A DNA stretch of 64,000 bases. It comes from Naegleria gruberi (taxonomy: Eukaryota). The stretch lies in the NCBI GenBank assembly GCA_000004985.1, contig GG738854.1. One strand, written 5' to 3'. Positions 17,426 to 60,999 of the stretch are shown here, one piece after another; position 1 is the first letter of the stretch, and each line of letters starts with the position of its first letter. The notes under the pieces are model-generated. The model worked only from the letters and a program-made list of their open reading frames with translations. It was not told where the DNA came from and did no database searches. The position numbers and the translations under genes are program-made.

Positions 17426-18290
17426 CGCAGAAACACGAAACAATTTAAACATTATCAGTCTGAATACGAAACCTACCTATTCTTTGCCGGCAATTTATTC
17501 GAAACAAAATAATCTCTCAAGTGTTGTCTGTTTTTTTTCTGTGTGTATTTTGCATCTCTCTGAGATGTTGATATCTGTTCAAGTGAACATTTCTATGAAA
17601 ATACAAAAAGAAGCACTTGCCATTTTGGAGGCGGAAGAAAGCTGACGAAAGGAATTTTTTAGCTAGTCTGCATTTTAATTGTATAATTCTGTCTAAATGT
17701 TGAGTTGCTTGTCTTTGGGTTGTCTTTCTGTGTTGGTTTCTGATTTGATGTGCGAAATGTAGAGATATTTCGAATAGAGTAAGGTTGAGGGTTGCATCTA
17801 TTGAATTCGCGATGTTGCTTTTGAGATTTCTACATAATAGTATGGAATGGCCACATTGTAAATATGTAGAAATTTACAAAATTCACATTGAAGGAAGTTG
17901 TGACATTGAAGGAAGTGGGAGAAACGAAACTCCATTGCATTTTTGTTTAGTTTTGTTGAATCTTGGGTGAAAGGTTTGGTGTTTGTTTCCATTCCTTGCG
18001 CATCATAAAATGCAATATAGCAATTAGGAAGTGAAAGTTCAGATTTAATAACCGATTGAGCAGAATAATAGATACTGTCGTTTGGCAGTTCATATTTCTG
18101 AACAGAATGCTAGCCGTTCGATAGATGGAAAGTTGTGTTTCAATTTGAATGAGAGGCAAAGTGGAAAGGAATCTCATGGAAAGTAATGGAAGAACAACAA
18201 ATCATGGTTTTGGCAACTTGCTTTCAAACTGAAACACACTCGGCACCTCTTTTAACTGTTGTCTTAACTATGTTGTTTGAAATATTGGAT

Positions 18291-18380
18291 GGTGCGATGG
18301 TCGAGTGGTCTAAGACGACACGTTAAGGTATTCTAATACCGTGTTCCGCAAGGGCGTGGGTTCAAATCCCACTCGCATCA
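18291..18380 (+). tRNA. tRNA-Leu(AAG), class II, with a 10-nt intron 3' of the anticodon
   Basis: Acceptor GGTGCGA/TCGCATC with one G-U pair; 3-bp D stem GTC/GAC with GG-containing D loop; anticodon stem ACACG/CGTGT; loop TTAAGG followed by the intron. Long variable arm, T arm GTGGG-TTCAAAT-CCCAC, discriminator A. T-run terminator at 18383-18387. Confidence 0.85.
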
Positions 18381-18655
18381 AATTTTTGCTTCAACTGAGT
18401 TAATATGGTATTGTGAGAAGGAAAAATCTCTTTACTTTGAGAATGAAGACGGTTCCAGAAGATGAATTTCCTCACAGATGTTGACTTGTTCTGTTTTGCA
18501 AAATGGCACTGTGGCATGACTATTAGAAATCATCCATTTTTTTAAAGTTGACCAGTTAAATACCAAATAGATCAATAAAATCTGATTTCATTGACCTCAA
18601 TTCAATTAGGGAGGTGTTGAATAAATCAATTATTTAATATTAACGATGAGGAAGC

Positions 18656-19384
18656 TTAAATAATGGCAGCTGTTGCTGTAATTTCAATTCTCCATTCAGG
18701 TCTAGCCAATTGAGCTTGAACAGTAGCTCTTGGTGGAGTATTACCTTTTGGAACCCAAGCATCCCATACCTTATTCATTCCAGCAAAATCCTCAACCATA
18801 TTAGCCAAGAAAATTTGAACCATCAATAATTTTGTCTTGTCAGTTCCTGCCTCCTTAAGACGAGCATCAAGCATTGCCAAAACTTCCTCAGTTTGTCCTT
18901 CAATATCCTTAGTTCCATCATCTGGTACTTGTCCTGAAATGTACAAAACTCCCTGATAAGCAGCAGTCTCACTAAAACGTTCTCCAACATGGAATCTCAC
19001 CAAACCATTATTCTCAATTCCTGAACGAGTTTGAGCTTGCAATTGTACCTTAATTTTAGCATCAACTTGTGAATCAATTTCCATCAATGTAACAGCAGGT
19101 AATTGATTTCCAAAAACTCTTCTCAAAACTGAAAAACAACTTGTAAAATCCTCATCCACATTTCTAAATTGGAGGGTGAGTCTTTCAACATCTCGGAGTG
19201 ATGCGGAGGCAACAATTTGCTTGATGGATTGTTCCGCATTGGTTAAACATTGTTCAAATTGTTCGATCAGATTTTGTTCTTGTTGTTGTGGAGTGCTGTT
19301 TGTGATTGGAACGAAAATTGCTCCATTTTCTTCTATGATGGCTTTTTGCATTTTTTTTAACTTTGACTTTTCAAAATATTTCAT
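18656..19384 (-). CDS. RidA/YjgF/L-PSP family protein with an N-terminal extension of about 100 aa
   Basis: C-terminal domain YQGVLYISGQVP...QTEEVLAMLDARLKEAG...FLANMVEDFAGMNKVWDAW...PPRATVQAQLARPEWRIEI matches the RidA fold and its PxR...IEI signature. True ATG at 19384. Confidence 0.7.
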   Translation of the reverse strand: MKYFEKSKLKKMQKAIIEENGAIFVPITNSTPQQQEQNLIEQFEQCLTNAEQSIKQIVASASLRDVERLTLQFRNVDEDFTSCFSVLRRVFGNQLPAVTLMEIDSQVDAKIKVQLQAQTRSGIENNGLVRFHVGERFSETAAYQGVLYISGQVPDDGTKDIEGQTEEVLAMLDARLKEAGTDKTKLLMVQIFLANMVEDFAGMNKVWDAWVPKGNTPPRATVQAQLARPEWRIEITATAAII

Positions 19385-19635: not shown

Positions 19636-21842
19636 TCAAAAGTCCTGAGAAAGCCTTAAGAGCATTTCTTGACAAACTTTTTCAGGTAATTTGTAAATTC
19701 TATTGGTGTGATCCCTGAAAAGTTGTTTTCTGTTGGTAATGCTAAACTTGACAATCTCTCTCAAAAATTGCTCAAATGATTGTAAATCAAGATATTTTTC
19801 ACATGCTTCAAGTATTGTAAAGTAATTATCAATGGATAGATTAAAGTTATTCTTGCAATAATCGACCAGATATTGAATTTCATGTTTCATTGCCATATCA
19901 AGTAATCCAATAATTTTAACATCATCAATTTTGTCAGTTGAAATTCCATAACAATATTTGATCACAATTTCCAATAATTCCAAATCTTCTGATTCGTCAG
20001 GTGTGAATATTCCATCATCACTCAAATCACTGAAACAAGATCCACTGTCAAATAATGCATTAAACAATGTGCTAAATGAAGTCAATATAGTTTTGTGACA
20101 ATATAAGTATTTGTCTTGTCCCATTTTGATTTTCACATCACTTGTTTTCTTGTCATTATATAATGATTCAATTATTTGTGGCTCAGTTTCAATTGTTTCC
20201 TCAATATTAATTGCAGTTGGTTGAGTAATGATCATTTTTGAAAAAATGGCAGTAGCATTTCTCATAATTATTGGAAGAGTTGGTAATAAAGTGTTTCCTT
20301 TTTTGGTCCTCATTTGAACAACAGCATATTCAATACAATAGTTATTCAAATGATCAAGAATGTAATTTTGAACATTGAATTCCTCATTGCAAATTTTGAG
20401 TAAATTTTCAATTGTTTCCCATTTGAAAGTAAGATTTTCTAATGTGAGTGAGTTCACAAATTCACTTGTCAATGATCTTTTCAAATCAATAAATTCACCA
20501 TTCTTAAATAAACCCAAAATGAATAAAACATCCAAGATTTCTTCTTTGCTAAACTTTACCTTATTCTTATCATACATCAAAGAATCAATTAATTTTTGAA
20601 TAATTTCTTGTGATGAACTCATCAAACAAAGTAACTTTTCATTCTTCAAAATGTTACTAAATTTTGGTGAAGTTTTTTCAATGAGGGGAATGAATCCATA
20701 AATTGGCAATCCAAATAATTCATCTCTTGAATGTTTTTTCAAATTATGAAATTCTATTTTAGAATGTAAGTTACCATTTCCAGTTAATAACTTATTTCCA
20801 ATATGAGGATACGTTCTAATATCAAAAGGTGAATCACCACTGAATCCAGCAGTTCCATTTCCAGCAATTGTTATAATATTTCCATTTTCTAATATTTTTC
20901 TAATTCTATTATTATAATAATCAGCAATATAAACTTCATTATTTGATGAAACAAAAACACTAAAAGGATGATTCAGTCGTGCATTTGTTGCAAGACCATT
21001 ATCACCATTGAATCCATGAATTCCATTTCCAGCAATTGTTATAATATTTCCATTTTCTAATATTTTTCTAATTCTATTATTAAAATAATCAGCAATATAA
21101 ACTTCATTATTTGATGAAACAAAAACACTATAAGGAGATTCAGTCGTGCATTTGTTGCAAGACCATTATCACCATTGAATCCATGAGTTCCATTTCCAGC
21201 AATTGTTATAATATTTCCATTTTCTAATATTTTTCTAATTCTATTATTAAAATAATCAGCAATATAAACTTCATTATTTGATGAAACAAAAACACTATAG
21301 GATGAATTCAGTTGTGCATTTGTTGCAAGACCATTATCACCACTGAATCCATGAATTCCATTTCCAGCAATTGTTACAATATTTCCATTTTCTAATATTT
21401 TTCTAATTCTATGATTACCTTGATCAGCAATATAAACTTCATTATTTGATGAAACAAAAACACTGCAAGGAGTATACAGTTGTGCATTTGTTGCAAGACC
21501 ATTATCACCACTGAATCCATGAATTCCATTTCCAGCAATTGTTATAATATTTCCATTTTCTAATATTTTTCTAATTCTATTATTACCTTGATCAGCAATA
21601 TAAACTTCATTATTTGATGAAACAAAAACACTGTAAGGACGATTCAGTTGTGCATTTGTTGCAAGACCATTATCACCACTGGAACCCTTAGTTCCATTTC
21701 CAGCAATTGTTACAATAGTTCCATTTTCCAATATTTTTCTAATTCTATTATTAAAACAATCAGCAATATAAACTTCATTATTTGATGAAACAAAAACATT
21801 ATTAGGTCGATTCAGTTGTGCACTGGTAGCAAGCGAAGACAT
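19636..21842 (-). CDS. NHL-repeat + BTB-domain protein (paralog A); reading frame broken by a 1-nt deletion near 21140-21150, so a pseudogene or a sequence error
   Basis: From ATG 21842 (MSSLATSAQLNRP...) the N-terminal half is iterated NHL repeats of consensus N...SVFVSSNNEVYIAD..NNRIRKILENGNIITIAGNG..GFSGDNGLATNAQL. One repeat (ctgaatc-tccttatag) has lost a base relative to its neighbours (ctgaatcatccttttag), which shifts the frame. The C-terminal half 19636-20742 carries KYLYCHKTILTSFSTLFNALFDSGSCFSDLSDDGIFTPDESEDLELLEIVIKYCYGI, a BTB fold, and is colinear with the gene at 54132-56366. Confidence 0.75.
20790..21810. repeat. Tandem array of about 120-bp units (one NHL blade each) with near-identical nucleotide sequence inside the NHL-BTB gene
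   Basis: Eight or more copies of ...attgttataatatttccattttctaatatttttctaattctattatt...agcaatataaacttcattatttgatgaaacaaaaacact... show only scattered substitutions. This is a coding repeat, not a CRISPR array or satellite. Confidence 0.8.
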
Positions 21843-22508: not shown

Positions 22509-23102
22509 ATGCACAATTTGTTTAAACCTAACGAACAGTTTTCTGAGGAAGAGTTTAAGAGAAAGGCGTTATCGGGTCAATTTAAGGTATTGTCTGATTT
22601 CAATTCCGCAACCATTCTAAAAGAAAATCAAGAATTGGGATTACTAACTACTGAACAACAAGCTCCTCCTACCATAGAATTTCTTAAACTCGAGAAAAGT
22701 TGGTTACAGGCTAAAGAGTTGGCAACGAAACTCCTGAATGAAAATCAAGATCTTAAAACGTTTATTGAAACTCAAGAGAATGACTTTTATGAGATATCCG
22801 AAAAGAGAGAAAACGAAGTTGAAATTCTTCAAAACAAATATTCCGAAGCCTGTGAATTGAATCAAAAATACCAGCTTACACTTGAAGGTATCGTTAAAGA
22901 TGTTAAAGCCATCCAAAAGGAAAGCAATGAGCTCAAAATCCGTATTACTGCTGTTGAAAAGGAGAATCAAGACTTCAAGAAGGAAAATCAAGACCTCAAA
23001 ACCCGTATTACTGATGTTGAGAAGGAGAACGAAGGCTTTAAAATCCGTATTACTAATGTTGAACAAGAATTGCAACTTATGCAAATTCTTAATGCCTTAT
23101 AA
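22509..23102 (+). CDS. Coiled-coil protein with a 14-aa tandem heptad-type repeat (IRITxVEKENQDFKKENQDLKT...)
   Basis: 197-aa ORF with true ATG at 22509 and charged heptad-like periodicity. The small ORF at 23112-23393 may be a further exon. Confidence 0.45.
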   Translation: MHNLFKPNEQFSEEEFKRKALSGQFKVLSDFNSATILKENQELGLLTTEQQAPPTIEFLKLEKSWLQAKELATKLLNENQDLKTFIETQENDFYEISEKRENEVEILQNKYSEACELNQKYQLTLEGIVKDVKAIQKESNELKIRITAVEKENQDFKKENQDLKTRITDVEKENEGFKIRITNVEQELQLMQILNAL

Positions 23103-23833: not shown

Positions 23834-25408
23834 CTAATAAAGAGTTGTTTCTTTGAAATATCTGAATCGTCCAATGAACATGACTCCACATAATAGTAAT
23901 TTAGAAAATGAATTGAAATGTGAACACAGACTTAATTTGCTATTCGAAAGTCCAATAGAAAAACCAGTGTTTGATAACGCACTTGTCACTTCGAATGTAA
24001 TTTCAAATATTAAAGTTGAATAATTGGAAAGTTGAGAAATTTCAGAAATGGAAATTAAAAGTGTAAAGAAAACTAAAGTTAATGATTGAGTTGAAATAGA
24101 ATAGAATATAGTAGAGATTAATTTTGAGAAGAAACTGGATGAAATGTTATAGAAACTTGCATGGTAAGGCTCATTAGATGATATTTCAAGTGATTTTGCA
24201 TCTTGATTTCTGCCAGTTTCGCCCATGGTTGAGTAATTGGAGAAATTCAACATTTCATAAACTCTACACCCCAAATTATAAACCATTTTCGGTTTGATAT
24301 ACATTAGAAATATGTAAAACACCAAAGTTATATTCGAAAGTGATGATAAATCCATTAAGGAAATGCCTGCATTTCTAGCAGAAATTGGAAGAAACAAACT
24401 AATTACAACATTTTCAATTCCTCCTCCATTTTCACTATTTTTCATAGCCAATAATTGAACAGATTCATTCCAGTAGGTAAAAACGAAACCTATCAGAATC
24501 AATAATACATTAGAAACTCCATAAATCCAAGTCTGATATTCCTGATGAGCCATTAATGGACTCATTTGATGACAATTCTCCAAAATATACTTGAAAAGTT
24601 TCTTTCGTTTTGTTGAAATTCTCCAGAAAATCCAAAATATAAATTTCAAAGTTATTGGAAGAAAAACATGTCCCATTAAGATTAATAAGGAAATTGTGGA
24701 AAAGATGATTGGATTGGTAAAGTTTTCAAGGCCTTCATCGAGGAGAGTTGTTCCACAGTTGAGGAATGCAGAGGTGGAAATGAAGAGTCCTAACCAGAAG
24801 GGATTGTTTCCTTTCAGATAAAAGTTATTGGAAAGGTGGAATGAAATACCTAAAATTAAGAAACCCAACAATATAGAAAGAATAAAGAAAGAGTAAATTA
24901 TGATATTTGTCCAAATGATGCTGTAGAATTCAATTTCACTCTCCTGATAATAATCATATTCTTGTTGTAAAGGTTTCTTACAAAGTGACGAAACCCTTCT
25001 TCCAAATCTATTGAACAGTCCTTCGGAAGCAACTCCTGAGAGTTCATCCTCCAATATTTCATCGTCCATACTTTCTTCTTGAAGTACTTTCCTAATCATT
25101 TCATTTCTTGTATTGTAAACTTTACAAATTGTAATCGGAATCATTGTTACGAAAATGGATCCAGTCAACATGGCCAATAACAAACAAATCTGTGAAGATA
25201 CTCGTATATTTTCCAATGAATGATTCAAAAATCCTGTCAGACATATATTCGTTATAGAAATAAACAATGAATCCAGAAATGAAAATTTAGTTTTCACATT
25301 CGAAAGTTCTAAACAATAAAATACAATTCCATATAAAAATCCGCTCACAATCAAGATCAATACATGTATGTATATCGAATATCTACCTAACATACTCTGT
25401 ATCGACAT
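23834..25408 (-). CDS. Trk/HKT-type potassium transporter
   Basis: Pore-loop segments LDSLFISITNICLTGF, FLNCGTTLLDEGL, SARNAGISLMDLSSLS and EVTSALSNTGFSIGLS match the four MPM selectivity-filter glycine segments of Trk/Ktr/HKT transporters; 8-10 hydrophobic helices. The ORF-track start at 25429 is TTG; the first ATG is 25408. Confidence 0.7.
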   Translation of the reverse strand: MSIQSMLGRYSIYIHVLILIVSGFLYGIVFYCLELSNVKTKFSFLDSLFISITNICLTGFLNHSLENIRVSSQICLLLAMLTGSIFVTMIPITICKVYNTRNEMIRKVLQEESMDDEILEDELSGVASEGLFNRFGRRVSSLCKKPLQQEYDYYQESEIEFYSIIWTNIIIYSFFILSILLGFLILGISFHLSNNFYLKGNNPFWLGLFISTSAFLNCGTTLLDEGLENFTNPIIFSTISLLILMGHVFLPITLKFIFWIFWRISTKRKKLFKYILENCHQMSPLMAHQEYQTWIYGVSNVLLILIGFVFTYWNESVQLLAMKNSENGGGIENVVISLFLPISARNAGISLMDLSSLSNITLVFYIFLMYIKPKMVYNLGCRVYEMLNFSNYSTMGETGRNQDAKSLEISSNEPYHASFYNISSSFFSKLISTIFYSISTQSLTLVFFTLLISISEISQLSNYSTLIFEITFEVTSALSNTGFSIGLSNSKLSLCSHFNSFSKLLLCGVMFIGRFRYFKETTLY

Positions 25409-25764
25409 TTTCTTTGTGTTTAATCTCAAGTTTTCTTCTCAGATATTTAAAAGATTTTCTTTCAATAGATTTTTTCCAACCTTTCCTTATTTATAACCTA
25501 ATACTCAACAAGTGAAGATGAAAAAGTATGTCTTATATCAGACATCTTATTATTTTCCTTTCAAAATACCTTTGCATTCGAAGAAAAATTATATGTTTAT
25601 TCAATGAGTTCCTGAGATATTAAAAGCACTTGAAATTTTGGTCATCATCTGTTTATTACAAAGTGATTTATTTCAATTGCTTGTTTATTGTCTCTATGGA
25701 ATTCCTTGATTGCAGTCCAATTGCGATTTCAAGTTTAGTTTGTGAATTAGTTTTGTAATATAAT

Positions 25765-34611: not shown

Positions 34612-34858
34612 ATCTTATAATTATTGAACATTTGACAGAGTATTGACTTTTCAAAAATTTGGGGATGGCATCACTTTGCTTGCTGTTTGAATTTTCTGTG
34701 TAGATCAGAACACAAAATATGTTTCACACTTAATTTGGATAATTGTTGGATGGTTTGTTTTCCAGAAGGACGAGAAATAATGAGAGAAACCTACACAGAA
34801 GAGGATAAAAGAGATTTATTCTAACATATGGTTTTCATAAATTGAAAGCAACAAAATT

Positions 34859-34948
34859 TGATGCGAGTGGGATTTGAACCCACGCCCTTGCGGAACACGG
34901 TATTAGAATACCTTAACGTGTCGTCTTAGACCACTCGACCATCGCACC
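34859..34948 (-). tRNA. tRNA-Leu(AAG) with 10-nt intron; inverted duplicate of 18291-18380
   Basis: Reverse complement is identical to the plus-strand copy over the tRNA body and intron. About 85 bp of 5' flank (...tcttttaactgttgtcttaac.at.ttgtttgaaatatt.gatgg) is also conserved between the two copies. Confidence 0.85.
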
Positions 34949-35321
34949 ATCGAATATTTCAAACAAAATGGTTAAGACAACAGTTAAAAGAGAATTTCAA
35001 AGAGAAAAGCAAGTTGAAAGAACCATGTTAAGACTACAGTTTGGTTAATGGGTTCGAGGATTTTACAATCAATCTGTTCACTAATGACTTTTCTTGAATG
35101 ATATAGATTATTCTGAATTCTGTTTGATTAATAATAATTAATTTAATTATTGAAAGTAAAATTTTGATGGAACTATCTGTTGCTCAATGATGTCGGTTAG
35201 CACAATTAGGTGCCTTTTCAAAATATTATCGATACTATTCGAAAGGAAAATAATCCATAATATTTGTGTGTGAAAACAACAAGCTCCATCTCTTCTCTTT
35301 GAATTCATTCAAATGATTCAA

Positions 35322-52676: not shown

Positions 52677-53804
52677 TTACAAATCTACAACAACTTTACC
52701 ACTCTTTTCACCAGTGAACAAAGATTGTAAAGCCTTTGGAATATTTTCAAGCCCAGTAAACTTGGTTTCGAATGCCTTAAGCTTTCCTTGCAACAACCAT
52801 TGAACAAGTTGAGCAGTTCCTTCTTGGAATCGTGGCATGAAAGATGAGATAATAAATCCCTGAGTCTTCAATTCTCTAACAACATGGATTGTACTCAATC
52901 TCAAACCAGTTTCTGGATTTTGTTCATTGTAACTGCTAATAGCTCCACAAAATGAAATTCTACCTTTACAATTCATGGCCAAAGTTACAGCATCCAAAAT
53001 AAATCCACCAGTATTATCAAAATAACAATCGACACCTTTTGGACATTCTTCATCAATGGCCTTCTTCAACTCATTGACATTATTATTGAACTTTTTGTAA
53101 TTAATGACAGCATCAAATCCATTTTCAAGCAATTCCTTAACATTGTCATTTCCTGAAATACCAACAACTCTACATCCTAAAATTTTACCAATTTGTCCAA
53201 CAACACTTCCAACAGCACCAGAAGCAGCACTAACGACAATAGTTTCACCTTCCTTAGGAGCACAAATATCAATCAAACCAAAATAGGAAGTCAATCCTGG
53301 CATACCCAAAACACCCAAAAAATATGAAAGTGGAATTCCACTTACACCTTCTAATTTTCTCAAATAAACACTCTTATCACTCAAATCAACAACTTGTTCT
53401 AATACCCAAGGTAATGCACCATAGACAATATCTCCTTCCTTATAAGTTTCGGCAAGTTTAGCACCAACTTTGACAACCTTAGCAACAGCACCACCACTAA
53501 CTGGTTCATTGAGTGGGTATGGTCCAAAATATCCTTTTGGTGGTTGTGCACTCATTCTAATTCTCATATATGGATCTATTTTCAATGAATTTCATTTCCA
53601 ATCACGAAAAATTACTCAATTAAACAACTTATTAAATTTTCAATCTCACATACCAACAGAAAGATGCAACAAACGAACAACCAATTGTTCTTCACCCAAT
53701 TGATCAACATTTGGTAAAGCAATTTCTTCCAATTTGAAATTATCCTCCTTAATCAAACCTTCAGGATAGGAAACCAAGAGTAAACGTTTATTTGTTGTGG
53801 ACAT
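52677..53804 (-). CDS. NADP-dependent oxidoreductase of the MDR superfamily (prostaglandin reductase / Zta1-like), two exons
   Basis: Exon 1 53804-53654 (MSTTNKRLLLVSYPEGLIKEDNFKLEEIALPNVDQLGEEQLVVRLLHLSV) ends in phase 1 at GTATGT; 78-nt intron 53576-53653. Exon 2 53575-52677 (DPYMRIRM...SAASGAVGSVVGQIGKILGCRVVGISG..., Rossmann GxGxxG). Confidence 0.8.
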
Positions 53805-54131: not shown

Positions 54132-56366
54132 TTATTTTCGTTCAAGTGAAAATTGAACAAATAAGGCATGCAATATCTGCTCTGGTAGAAATGAAACTTT
54201 TTCGCAATCATTGAAAAGTTCCTTGCAATGTTCAATTCCAAATAATAACAATTCTCTGTAAAAATCTTTGAAGGAATCTAAGTGTAGATAATTTTTACAT
54301 GATATTGCAATTTTGTAATAATTTGCAGTTGTCAGAACGAAATTATTCTTGCAGAATTCGAGTAGGTTGCTTATTTCATGTCTCAATGCCAAATCAATTA
54401 ATTCAATCTGTTTTGTTGCATCAAATTTAAATGGTATTCCATAACAAGATTTGATAACAATTTCCAATAATTCCAAATCCTCTGAAGGGTCTGGAACAAA
54501 AACACCATCATCACTGAGATCACTAAACGATGATCCACTATCAAAGAGTGCATCAAAGAATATGCTAGAAGAGCTCAAAACAGTTTTGTGGCAATACAAA
54601 TACTTGTCTAGCCCTAGTTTCACTTTGATGTCACCTGTTTTCTCGTCATTGTATAGGTCAACGAGGCCTCTTGGAGGAATTTCAACTTTTTCATCAAGGT
54701 TGATGATTGTCTTTTGAGGTATTGCCATTTTTTGAATAATCGAAACACTATTCTTAAGAACAATTGGACTATTTCCGAGTGGAACGCTATTTTCAGTGGA
54801 TTTTAAACGAAGTGCAGCATATTCCACAAAGTATTCATGTATGTATTCAAAAATCTTGTTTTGTAAGGATAGGTCTTCATTGCAGAATTTGAGATGTGTT
54901 TCAATTTGTTCCCATTGAGAGGTGAATCTTTCAACTGTAATTGACTCTACTAATTTCTTCACTAAATTCTTTTTCAAGTTGATAAATTCACCATTTTCAA
55001 ACAATCCCAATAACGATAAAACATTCAATATCTCATGTTCCATGAATTCCAAATTATCATTTTGATATATGAGTGAGTTAATCAATCGTTGAATTATTTC
55101 TCTTTGGCATAAATTAATCTTACTAAGAAGGTATTCATTTTGCAAAATAATTTTGCAAAATTGGGGTGATTTCTTTTCGATTAATGGGATAAATCCATAA
55201 ATATCCAAAATATTGATTTGATCTCTGGCTTGTTTCTTCAGTTTTGGAATGTGTGTAGAAGTAATTCCAATATGTGGGTAACGTGAGATATCGAAAAATG
55301 AATCACCACTATTTCCTTCTCTTCCATTTCCTGCAATTGTTACAATATTTCCATTTTGTAATATCTTTCTAATTCTTTGATTACTTTGATCGGCAATATA
55401 AACTTCATTTGATGAGACAAAAACACTTGAAGGCCGATTGAGCATTGTATCAATTGCAGGCACATTATCATCACCATACCCTTCCTTTCCATTTCCTGCA
55501 ATTGTTGCAATATTTCCATTTGCTAAAATCTTTCTAATTCTATGGTTGCCAGTGTCTGCAATATAGACTTCACCATTTGATGAAACAAAAACACTTTTTG
55601 GAAAATTGAGAGAAGTATTTGTTGCCAATATGTTATCCTCATGAAATCCCACGAGTCCATTTCCTGCAATTGTTACAATATTTCCATTTCTCAATATTTT
55701 TCTAATTCTATGGTTGCCAGTGTCAGCAATATAAACTTCATTATTTGATGTCACGAATACACTTGAAGGCCGATTGAGCATTGCATTAACTGCAGGCACA
55801 TTATCATCACCATACCCTTCCTTTCCATTTCCTGCAATGGTTACAATATTTCCATTCGACTCAATCTTTCTAATTTTGTTACGGTTTTGATCTGCAATAT
55901 AAACTTCATCATTTAATGTCACGAAAACACCTGAAGGACGATTAAGCATTGCATTAATCGCAAGTCTATTATATACTCCTTTACCATTTACATTATTTCC
56001 AGCAATTGTTATAATATTTCCATTTGTTAAAATCTTTCTAATTCGATTATTAAAATAATCAGCAATATAAACTTCATTATATGGAGAAACAAACACTCCG
56101 ATTGGATAATTCAGCATGGCATTAGTTGCAGGACCATTATCACCACTAAATCCATTTTGTCCATTTCCTGCAATTGTCACCATTTTTCCATTGGTTAATA
56201 CCTTCCGAATTTTATGATTGCCAATATCAGCAATGTACACTTCGCCATTCGATGAAACAAAAACACTTGAAGGACCTTTAAAGTTTGCATTGGTCGCTAG
56301 TAACAGTTGCATTTTCAGTTTTTTAAGCCTTGATTTTTTATCTTCAGTTGTTGCTCTTCTTTTCAT
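54132..56366 (-). CDS. NHL-repeat + BTB-domain protein (paralog B, intact)
   Basis: First ATG 56366 (MKRRATTEDKK...); the track start at 56411 is TTG. Seven or more NHL repeats (SVFVSSNGEVYIADIGNHKIRKVLTNGKMVTIAGNG...) are followed by the BTB region KYLYCHKTVLSSSSIFFDALFDSGSSFSDLSDDGVFVPDPSEDLELLEIVIKSCYGI. 745 aa, intronless. Confidence 0.8.
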   Translation of the reverse strand: MKRRATTEDKKSRLKKLKMQLLLATNANFKGPSSVFVSSNGEVYIADIGNHKIRKVLTNGKMVTIAGNGQNGFSGDNGPATNAMLNYPIGVFVSPYNEVYIADYFNNRIRKILTNGNIITIAGNNVNGKGVYNRLAINAMLNRPSGVFVTLNDEVYIADQNRNKIRKIESNGNIVTIAGNGKEGYGDDNVPAVNAMLNRPSSVFVTSNNEVYIADTGNHRIRKILRNGNIVTIAGNGLVGFHEDNILATNTSLNFPKSVFVSSNGEVYIADTGNHRIRKILANGNIATIAGNGKEGYGDDNVPAIDTMLNRPSSVFVSSNEVYIADQSNQRIRKILQNGNIVTIAGNGREGNSGDSFFDISRYPHIGITSTHIPKLKKQARDQINILDIYGFIPLIEKKSPQFCKIILQNEYLLSKINLCQREIIQRLINSLIYQNDNLEFMEHEILNVLSLLGLFENGEFINLKKNLVKKLVESITVERFTSQWEQIETHLKFCNEDLSLQNKIFEYIHEYFVEYAALRLKSTENSVPLGNSPIVLKNSVSIIQKMAIPQKTIINLDEKVEIPPRGLVDLYNDEKTGDIKVKLGLDKYLYCHKTVLSSSSIFFDALFDSGSSFSDLSDDGVFVPDPSEDLELLEIVIKSCYGIPFKFDATKQIELIDLALRHEISNLLEFCKNNFVLTTANYYKIAISCKNYLHLDSFKDFYRELLLFGIEHCKELFNDCEKVSFLPEQILHALFVQFSLERK

Positions 56367-59937: not shown

Positions 59938-60999
<1,062 letters not shown>

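Follow-up and report, generated by a model that had tools for sequence, protein, structure and literature searches.

The stretch analyzed here (the window) comprises 64,000 nucleotides (nt) of contig GG738854.1 of the Naegleria gruberi assembly GCA_000004985.1. Its G+C content is 33%, and its open reading frames (ORFs) are long and intron-poor. The reverse strand carries a gene, copy A, in which an array of nearly identical units encoding an NHL propeller precedes a region encoding a BTB domain and in which one unit lacks a single base (Table 1). This gene is NAEGRDRAFT_64406 (XP_002680301.1; UniProt D2V6E4). The interval singled out in an earlier reading of the letters alone, made before any search (the sequence-only reading), begins and ends exactly with its stop and start codons. 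The best protein matches of the frame-restored product were predicted proteins of N. gruberi. A tblastn search of the window with eleven family proteins found copy A and one paralogue, copy B, and no other member; an exact look-up placed both copies on the same 665,159-bp scaffold. We found no mention in the literature of the locus tags and accession numbers of the gene.

Table 1. Features of copy A and of the comparison genes in the window
Feature	Position	Strand	Remarks
Copy A, NHL-BTB gene	19636-21842	-	ATG at 21840-21842, stop at 19636-19638; broken by a 1-nt deletion
Six 168-nt NHL units, one blade each	20824-21830	-	Delimited by Tandem Repeats Finder, anchor spacing, alignment and AlphaFold blades
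Unit 1	21663-21830	-	168 nt
Unit 2	21495-21662	-	168 nt
Unit 3	21327-21494	-	168 nt
Unit 4	21159-21326	-	168 nt
Unit 5	20992-21158	-	167 nt, carries the deletion
Unit 6	20824-20991	-	168 nt
Missing-base site	21136-21137	-	Codon 8 of unit 5 (AAT C-T CCT), a hypervariable codon
Out-of-frame tail	21057-21136	-	26 aberrant codons, then premature TAG at 21057-21059
107-nt GT..AG "intron" of the reference model	21057-21163	-	Excises the frameshift and 36 residues of blades 4/5
Linker between propeller and helical domain	20704-20832	-	Residues ~338-380, predicted local distance difference test score (pLDDT) <50, disordered
All-helical middle domain	20239-20703	-	Residues ~381-535, no Pfam match
BTB/POZ domain	19846-20166	-	Residues ~560-666, PF00651; strand/helix pattern of the model at 558-666 fits
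C-terminal helices after the BTB domain	19639-19845	-	Residues ~667-735, AlphaFold model
Copy B, intact paralogue	54132-56366	-	NAEGRDRAFT_64426 (XP_002680312.1), 744 amino acids, 58% identical to copy A
Polyubiquitin gene	59938-60855	-	Four 228-nt units, comparison array

Tandem Repeats Finder placed the array of copy A at positions 20833-21833, with a period of 168 nt, 6.0 copies, 93% matches and a score of 1678. A conserved 35-nt anchor occurs six times in it, at spacings of 168, 168, 168, 167, and 168 nt, and each 168-bp unit encodes one propeller blade of 56 residues. The count of at least eight units of about 120 bp proposed from the letters alone was contradicted by all three lines of evidence (Tandem Repeats Finder, anchors, and alignment). 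In the DNA alignment, pairs of units were 85 to 96% identical. That the units differ by only a few substitutions held for the inner ones (6 to 15 of 168 nt) and failed for the first and last, which differ from the others by 12 to 25 nt. Long stretches are identical in every unit, among them a block of 40 nt that encodes VFVSSNNEVYIAD and those for RIRKILENG and TIAGNG. The mean proportions of differing synonymous (pS) and nonsynonymous (pN) sites were 0.078 and 0.093, respectively. Pairs of units 2 to 5 showed 0 to 3 synonymous versus 3 to 12 nonsynonymous differences, and the ratio of nonsynonymous to synonymous substitution rates (dN/dS) between inner units ranged from 0.8 to above 4, a range that rests on those 0 to 3 synonymous differences per pair. 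The amino acid identity averaged 90.0% over 224 residues for units 2 to 5 and 83.9% for all six.

The window offers two arrays for comparison. Polyubiquitin is the textbook tandem coding repeat and resembles copy A in having head-to-tail coding units within one ORF. It encodes four identical units of 76 amino acids followed by one extra C-terminal Asn, and its units (60855-59944) are 83 to 89% identical in DNA, with a mean pS of 0.587 and a mean pN of 0.031. Since they are only this similar in DNA, no recent homogenization has taken place there. The same protein is maintained over diverged synonymous sites (pS of 0.59), indicating purifying selection, whereas the units of copy A present the opposite pattern of almost no synonymous change and amino acid change at a few sites. 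The unit divergence in copy A is thus far below the synonymous divergence of polyubiquitin (0.078 versus 0.587), as the sequence-only reading had stated. The second array, in copy B, has six NHL units (55293-56297) that are 64 to 78% identical, with a mean pS of 0.49 and a mean pN of 0.23; these units are old and divergent. Two divergent environmental members (L001 and L002) showed no tandem repeat at the DNA level. We therefore rejected DNA-level homogeneity as a general property of NHL-BTB genes: neither copy B nor the two environmental members reach the grade of copy A, and the property is specific to a subclade.

Several patterns within this subclade point to recombination. In copy A, divergence is greatest in the edge units and smallest among the inner ones, as is expected from unequal exchange. 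Among the paralogues, P0003 has an almost exact internal duplication of two units, and P0231 corresponds to the N-terminal part of P0005 except that units 1 and 2 are duplicated exactly; the members from Naegleria lovaniensis vary between five and seven units. An uninterrupted run of 199 residues is identical in copy A and P0003; the identity of the two is 89% overall and much lower on both flanks, and other paralogues differ from copy A at many sites inside the run. Judged from the protein sequences, this mosaic fits a conversion tract between paralogues, and P0003 as a paralogue carrying such a tract seems to fit it better than P0003 as an allele of copy A. When the hypervariable sites described below were excluded, units of the N. 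gruberi subclade were 86 to 88% identical both within and between proteins and those of N. lovaniensis 87 to 91%, the identity between the two species being 73%. The same high internal conservation is thus found in N. lovaniensis, which comes from an independent genome project. The earlier suggestion of recent amplification or ongoing gene conversion agrees with the 0 to 3 synonymous differences per pair, the divergent edges, the duplications in paralogues, the 199-residue tract and the resemblance of units within species, and its extension to the whole subfamily is supported.

The missing base lies in unit 5, and hence in blade 5, between positions 21137 and 21136. The coding strand reads CTGAATC^TCCTTATAG at this point, where unit 6 has the intact CTGAATCATCCTTTTAG and unit 2 has CTGAATCGTCCTTACAG; the site as assembled is AATCTCCT, the longer form being AATC[A/G]TCCT. 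That one unit had lost a single base and with it the frame was already apparent from the letters, and it is borne out by the anchor spacing of 167 nt, by the alignment and by the restoration of the frame when one base is added. The deletion splits copy A into two ORFs in different frames (21057-21842 and 19636-20742). As assembled, the product has 261 amino acids and ends after 4.2 blades, with loss of the BTB domain, while adding one base opens a frame of 735 codons that begins with the ATG at 21842 and reaches the stop at 19636-19638. A frame-disrupting lesion in the genomic sequence is a criterion for pseudogenes, and copy A has one: the 1-nt deletion, followed by a TAG 26 codons later. Exact look-ups of both ORF halves, alternative starts included, returned the reference model only, and a protein search with a query spanning the frameshift gave that model as the sole near-identical match. 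No match was found in a metagenome scan with the C-terminal ORF or in an exact search with a 26-nt unit core.

The public model of copy A (XP_002680301.1, P0002 in our set) has 699 residues and matches the window apart from a gap of 36 residues. When all GT..AG pairs of the region were tried, exactly one, of 107 nt (21057-21163), reproduced this protein on removal. It has the GT..AG ends of an intron, and its excision restores the frame exactly as in XP_002680301.1; were it real, the cell would make the annotated protein of 699 residues. We give this very little credence. The donor context (GATAATG/GTCTTGCAAC) and the acceptor context (AAAATATTAG/AAAATGG) are each found five times in the array, nothing distinguishes the chosen pair, and the acceptor AG is merely the end of the premature TAG. 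Moreover, the excision removes two thirds of a blade, and the five and a third blades left cannot close a six-bladed propeller. The models of P0003, P0004, and copy B have six consecutive units without the 36-residue gap. For these reasons (recurrent contexts, the AG of the TAG, the cut through blades 4 and 5, and gapless paralogues), we rejected the intron and judged it to be an annotation patch by which the gene predictor restored the frame; the model is not evidence of splicing. The public 699-residue protein is a prediction artifact: XP_002680301.1 (D2V6E4) conceals the frameshift and encodes an impossible propeller of five and a third blades. The sequence-only reading had recognized the frameshift and missed that the public annotation hides it behind an artificial intron.

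In the frame-restored protein, Pfam identified NHL (PF01436; 88.7 bits, cut-off of 20), TEN_NHL (PF25021; 133.7 bits, cut-off of 27.1), and BTB (PF00651; 37.9 bits, cut-off of 20.5); the two NHL scores were similar in copy B. Since all scores exceed the curated cut-offs, the NHL and BTB assignments made from the letters alone stand. An AlphaFold model of frame-restored copy A, built on twelve family sequences (mean pLDDT of 81.6), has 24 strands that make six four-stranded blades (residues 13 to 327), with a pLDDT mostly above 90 in residues 10 to 330. The NHL propeller spans residues 5 to 340 and is a separate recognition domain in the same chain as the BTB domain when the frame is restored; the frameshift as assembled separates the two. 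Foldseek matched the propeller to the teneurin-like structure 9ifo (47% identity; E = 3e-32), NHLRC2 (6gc1), SOQ1 (7djl), and Pizza6, the first three with E values of 3e-32 to 2e-24 and a root mean square deviation of about 2 to 3 Å over about 320 to 350 columns. These three proteins share the six-bladed NHL fold of copy A but have no BTB domain, whereas the propeller of copy A is joined to one.

The BTB domain was more distant from known structures. The single C-terminal ORF sequence gave no match against solved structures; only a family profile, built from the C-terminal halves of nine members, reached BTB domains, namely those of CP190, KEAP1, KBTBD2, PLZF, BCL6, and SPOP (E = 3e-5 to 6e-3). 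The alignments with KEAP1, KBTBD2, and SPOP run beyond the BTB core to profile positions 337 to 381, which hints at a 3-box-like pair of helices. By analogy with the domain content of BTB-Kelch (KLHL, KBTBD, and KEAP1) and MATH-BTB (SPOP) proteins, which likewise combine BTB with a propeller or other recognition domain, copy A is probably a substrate adaptor of a cullin-3 ubiquitin ligase, in which the propeller would bind the substrate. Its domain order is reversed relative to both groups (propeller N-terminal, BTB C-terminal), and it differs from BTB-Kelch proteins in having an NHL rather than a Kelch propeller and a Naegleria-specific helical domain between propeller and BTB. The MATH-BTB proteins are described as CUL3 adaptors and their family as expanded in grasses (PMC4091423, PMC6883508).

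When 1.84 billion representative proteins were scanned in full with HMMER, the C-terminal 368 residues serving as the query, only 26 clusters were obtained at E ≤ 1e-10. Among the 20 of these that were looked up, the named ones were all from N. gruberi, N. lovaniensis, or Naegleria fowleri, and the others came from environmental contigs; the C-terminal module, including the helical domain, was thus found only in Naegleria among named proteins. Most of the family members scanned carry NHL and BTB, and one has ankyrin repeats instead. In our literature search, Naegleria was not linked with NHL-BTB proteins and no description of the family was found; the Naegleria pangenome paper mentions neither NHL nor BTB.

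The differences that remain between units are not spread evenly. In units 2 to 5 of copy A, amino acid differences fall at unit positions 5, 7 to 10, 25, 26, 28, 40, 47, and 51. Across 34 units of the six closest N. gruberi sequences, the Shannon entropy is near zero except at positions 8 (2.6 bits), 10 (3.0), 25 (1.9), 26 (2.8), and 48 (2.8). The corresponding values for 20 units of four N. lovaniensis proteins are 2.5, 2.8, 1.6, 3.2, and 2.1 bits. In the model, strands A to D occupy unit positions 9 to 14, 20 to 24, 29 to 33, and 38 to 43, which places positions 25 and 26 in the B-C loop; position 48 belongs to the D-A loop, and positions 8 and 10 lie where that loop ends and enters strand A. 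Within copy A, variable residues concentrate in the D-A and B-C loops (14/25 versus 5/31 elsewhere; Fisher test, P = 0.004), and the A-B and C-D turns are invariant in the copy A clade. Where a blade consists of four antiparallel strands, its B-C and D-A connections exit on one face, and this is the face on which Kelch and WD40 propellers bind their ligands. It would follow from this general topology that the five variable positions of each blade share one propeller face, the one that is ligand-binding in Kelch and WD40 proteins. The near-identity of the units had been noticed from the letters alone; the concentration of the remaining differences at a few loop positions had been overlooked.

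The codon that lost a base is one of these hypervariable positions, and the same loop is unusual in unit 4. At loop codons 8 and 9, this unit reads AAT TCA TCC TAT, versus AAT CAT CCT TAT expected from its sister unit. Between the unit 4 loop, AATTCATCCTAT (N-S-S-Y), and the restored unit 5 loop, AATCATCCTTAT (N-H-P-Y), one T is inserted and another deleted nine bases later, a Levenshtein distance of 2 compared with five substitutions. Because an insertion and a deletion explain the difference better than five substitutions, the unit 4 loop looks like a compensated frameshift pair at the very spot of the unit 5 deletion. The loop is also one or two residues shorter in some paralogues, and small indels may contribute to the variation of the loop that precedes strand A. 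As for the deletion in unit 5, it could be either the first half of such a pair or a fresh inactivating hit.

The near-identity of the units could in principle come from the assembly, through collapse or a chimeric consensus of a longer or more divergent array. Tandem repeats of 168 bp that are more than 90% identical are a known cause of assembly problems, and the internally conserved repeat alleles of fungal NLRs were given a 2025 paper devoted to their long-read reconstruction (PMC12222747). Such an origin is highly improbable here, since the units retain distinct and ordered differences, the first and last are distinct, the spacing is an exact multiple of 168 nt save for one base, and equally high internal conservation occurs both in N. 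lovaniensis, which was sequenced independently, and in paralogues located on other scaffolds. The number of units in the copy A assembly may nevertheless be wrong. Nor does collapse account for the missing base, as it would remove whole 168-nt units; of the collapse or indel that the sequence-only reading held out as alternatives, the former fails and an error in a consensus base is possible. Such an error, made in base calling or in the consensus of a draft assembly over a hard-to-align repeat, would mean that the gene is intact in the organism. Near-identical units can indeed put reads into the wrong unit, the lesion is single, the whole 735-codon frame is otherwise open with no second disabling mutation in ~1.5 kb downstream, and the protein is colinear with intact paralogues. 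The site AATC^TCCT is not a homopolymer, however, reads from the neighboring unit (AATTCATCCTAT) piled up here would not remove the A of CAT, and the array is only ~1 kb long. Truncated or split models in several other family members also make disrupted copies plausible; defective copies seem to be common for this reason. All this favors a real deletion, and we regard the error as the clearly weaker candidate, with perhaps half the weight of a lesion present in the genome. Recovery of the protein by programmed -1 ribosomal frameshifting, for which we see practically no chance, was rejected: a -1 shift would restore the frame, and nothing further speaks for it, whereas the stretch from the deletion to the premature stop contains no X XXY YYZ slippery heptamer. 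Its longest run of T has five bases (GTGTTTTTGTTT) where a T-only heptamer needs six, GTGTTTTTGTTT is present in every intact unit, and the paralogues encode the same protein in one frame.

We thus lean toward a frameshift that is real and very young, the deletion being most likely a very recent inactivating mutation in copy A or in one haplotype. In the explanation that we prefer, copy A would belong to a Naegleria-specific multigene family whose members have a six-bladed NHL propeller at the N terminus and a BTB domain at the C terminus, separated by a disordered linker and a helical domain. In one subclade, which includes copy A, the blade-coding units would be kept nearly identical in DNA by unequal crossing-over and gene conversion that are recent and probably still under way, both inside the array and among paralogues, a mechanism that we infer from the pattern of the sequences. 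The differences surviving homogenization would be those in the D-A and B-C loops, at five positions in each blade. A one-base deletion in the hypervariable codon of blade 5 would truncate the protein and could later be repaired by conversion from a neighboring unit or compensated by a second indel, as apparently happened in blade 4, and the gene predictor would have bridged the frameshift with a GT..AG pair common to every unit. To this explanation as a whole (homogenizing recombination, surviving loop variation, a probably real and recent frameshift, and an artifactual annotation), we assign a probability of about 0.58.

Several points weigh against it. The ~500 codons past the frameshift are open, with no second lesion in ~1.5 kb, and random sequence of the same composition would stay open with a probability of ~3e-21; an intact gene with a sequencing error would look alike, and the lesion, which the sequence-only reading took as a possible sign of decay, must therefore be either very young or not real. 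The missing base is known from a single assembly, the only one of the locus among the accessible data. The dN/dS values above 1 between inner units are statistically insecure, given 0 to 3 synonymous changes per pair. Finally, the paralogues contribute evidence only at the protein level, and the differences in unit number may partly be annotation artifacts, because several of the family models (P0001, P0008, P0058, and P0225) are visibly aberrant. If the frameshift is merely a sequencing error, what remains is the ordinary concerted evolution of a tandem coding repeat.

The single locus is fairly ordinary; the new part is the family-wide combination of homogenized blades with five hypervariable positions on a propeller face. 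Its closest known analogue would be the internally conserved WD40 repeats of fungal NLR proteins. The WD40, ANK, and TPR repeats of these proteins are ~85% identical and evolve in concert, both inside single paralogues and among them; their number changes, and about four positions on the binding face are under positive selection (PMC1805685, PMC2873952, PMC4986451). Measured by the threshold used for high internal conservation in these proteins, at least 85% amino acid identity over at least 100 residues (PMC4986451), units 2 to 5 of copy A qualify, with 90% over 224 residues. The two systems are alike in having propeller blades ~85 to 90% identical within a gene, concerted evolution within and between paralogues with changing repeat number, and a handful of hypervariable positions per repeat, whose placement on a face in copy A comes from topology. 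They differ in the repeat itself (WD40 of 42 amino acids versus NHL of 56), in the partner domains (NACHT and HET versus BTB), and in the organism (fungus versus heterolobosean amoeba), and positive selection and allelic polymorphism are demonstrated in the fungal genes and not in copy A. Pfam found NHL and BTB and no NACHT or NB-ARC. Lacking a nucleotide-binding domain, copy A is not an NLR, and the resemblance concerns only the mode of repeat evolution.

In fungal NLRs, high internal conservation together with a few hypervariable surface positions marks rapidly diversifying recognition domains. If the family pattern holds, the Naegleria genes would be a concrete candidate set for the diversification of target recognition in a heterolobosean. 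It is conceivable, if rather doubtful, that they form a diversifying recognition repertoire of ubiquitin-ligase adaptors, with variation at five positions of each blade on the propeller face; equally tentative is the idea that duplication of units, gene conversion, and compensated frameshifts in the loop preceding strand A reshuffle this face. Naegleria is a free-living amoeba that grazes on bacteria. Should such a repertoire exist, its targets could be, for example, proteins of intracellular bacteria or giant viruses, or it could serve self/non-self recognition. It would then be a protist counterpart of the fungal NLR repeat system with another repeat and another effector domain, the frameshifted blade 5 being a snapshot of the process and blade 4 an apparently completed +1/-1 pair.

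Outside the window, many public models of N. gruberi and N. lovaniensis family members give the impression of having been patched, fused, or split (P0001, P0008, P0058, P0225, P0231 with P0123, and P0125). P0001 joins a truncated copy to a second copy, P0225 has one unit cut to RIRK/LNCPKS, and P0231 (NHL only) and P0123 (which starts with MYPHIGNK) lie on the same contig and together resemble P0005. These aberrant models suggest further frameshifts, truncations, or assembly problems. Since most of them (P0001, P0008, P0058, P0225, and P0231 with P0123) look patched or split in a way similar to that of copy A, family counts and alignments drawn from the public annotation are unreliable. The two divergent environmental NHL-BTB members are on ENA contigs k141_554141 (ERZ27315067; L001) and k127_121189 (ERZ929261; L002), where they adjoin a gene for a CDC48-like AAA ATPase and a Sel1-repeat gene. 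Their presence indicates Naegleria-like amoebae in those samples.

The neighbors of both NHL-BTB copies in the window are of ordinary housekeeping types, and copies A and B are alike only within their coding regions, so that they do not belong to a larger segmental duplication. On the same strand as copy A are genes for an L-PSP/RidA-family protein with an N-terminal extension (18656-19384), a TrkH-type cation transporter (23834-25429), and a zinc-type alcohol dehydrogenase or oxidoreductase (52677-53585). An inverted pair of 140 nt each, 98% complementary, lies 16.5 kb apart (18247-18386 and 34853-34992), with one arm directly downstream of the L-PSP gene that adjoins copy A; the arms may represent a small dispersed repeat or mobile element present in two copies. 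On the forward strand, an ORF at 22509-23102 encodes 197 amino acids rich in E, K, N, and Q, with a sub-threshold Pfam match only. It contains three copies of a 47-nt repeat (~21 amino acids), KENQDLKTRITDVEKEN, and has a coiled-coil-like look.

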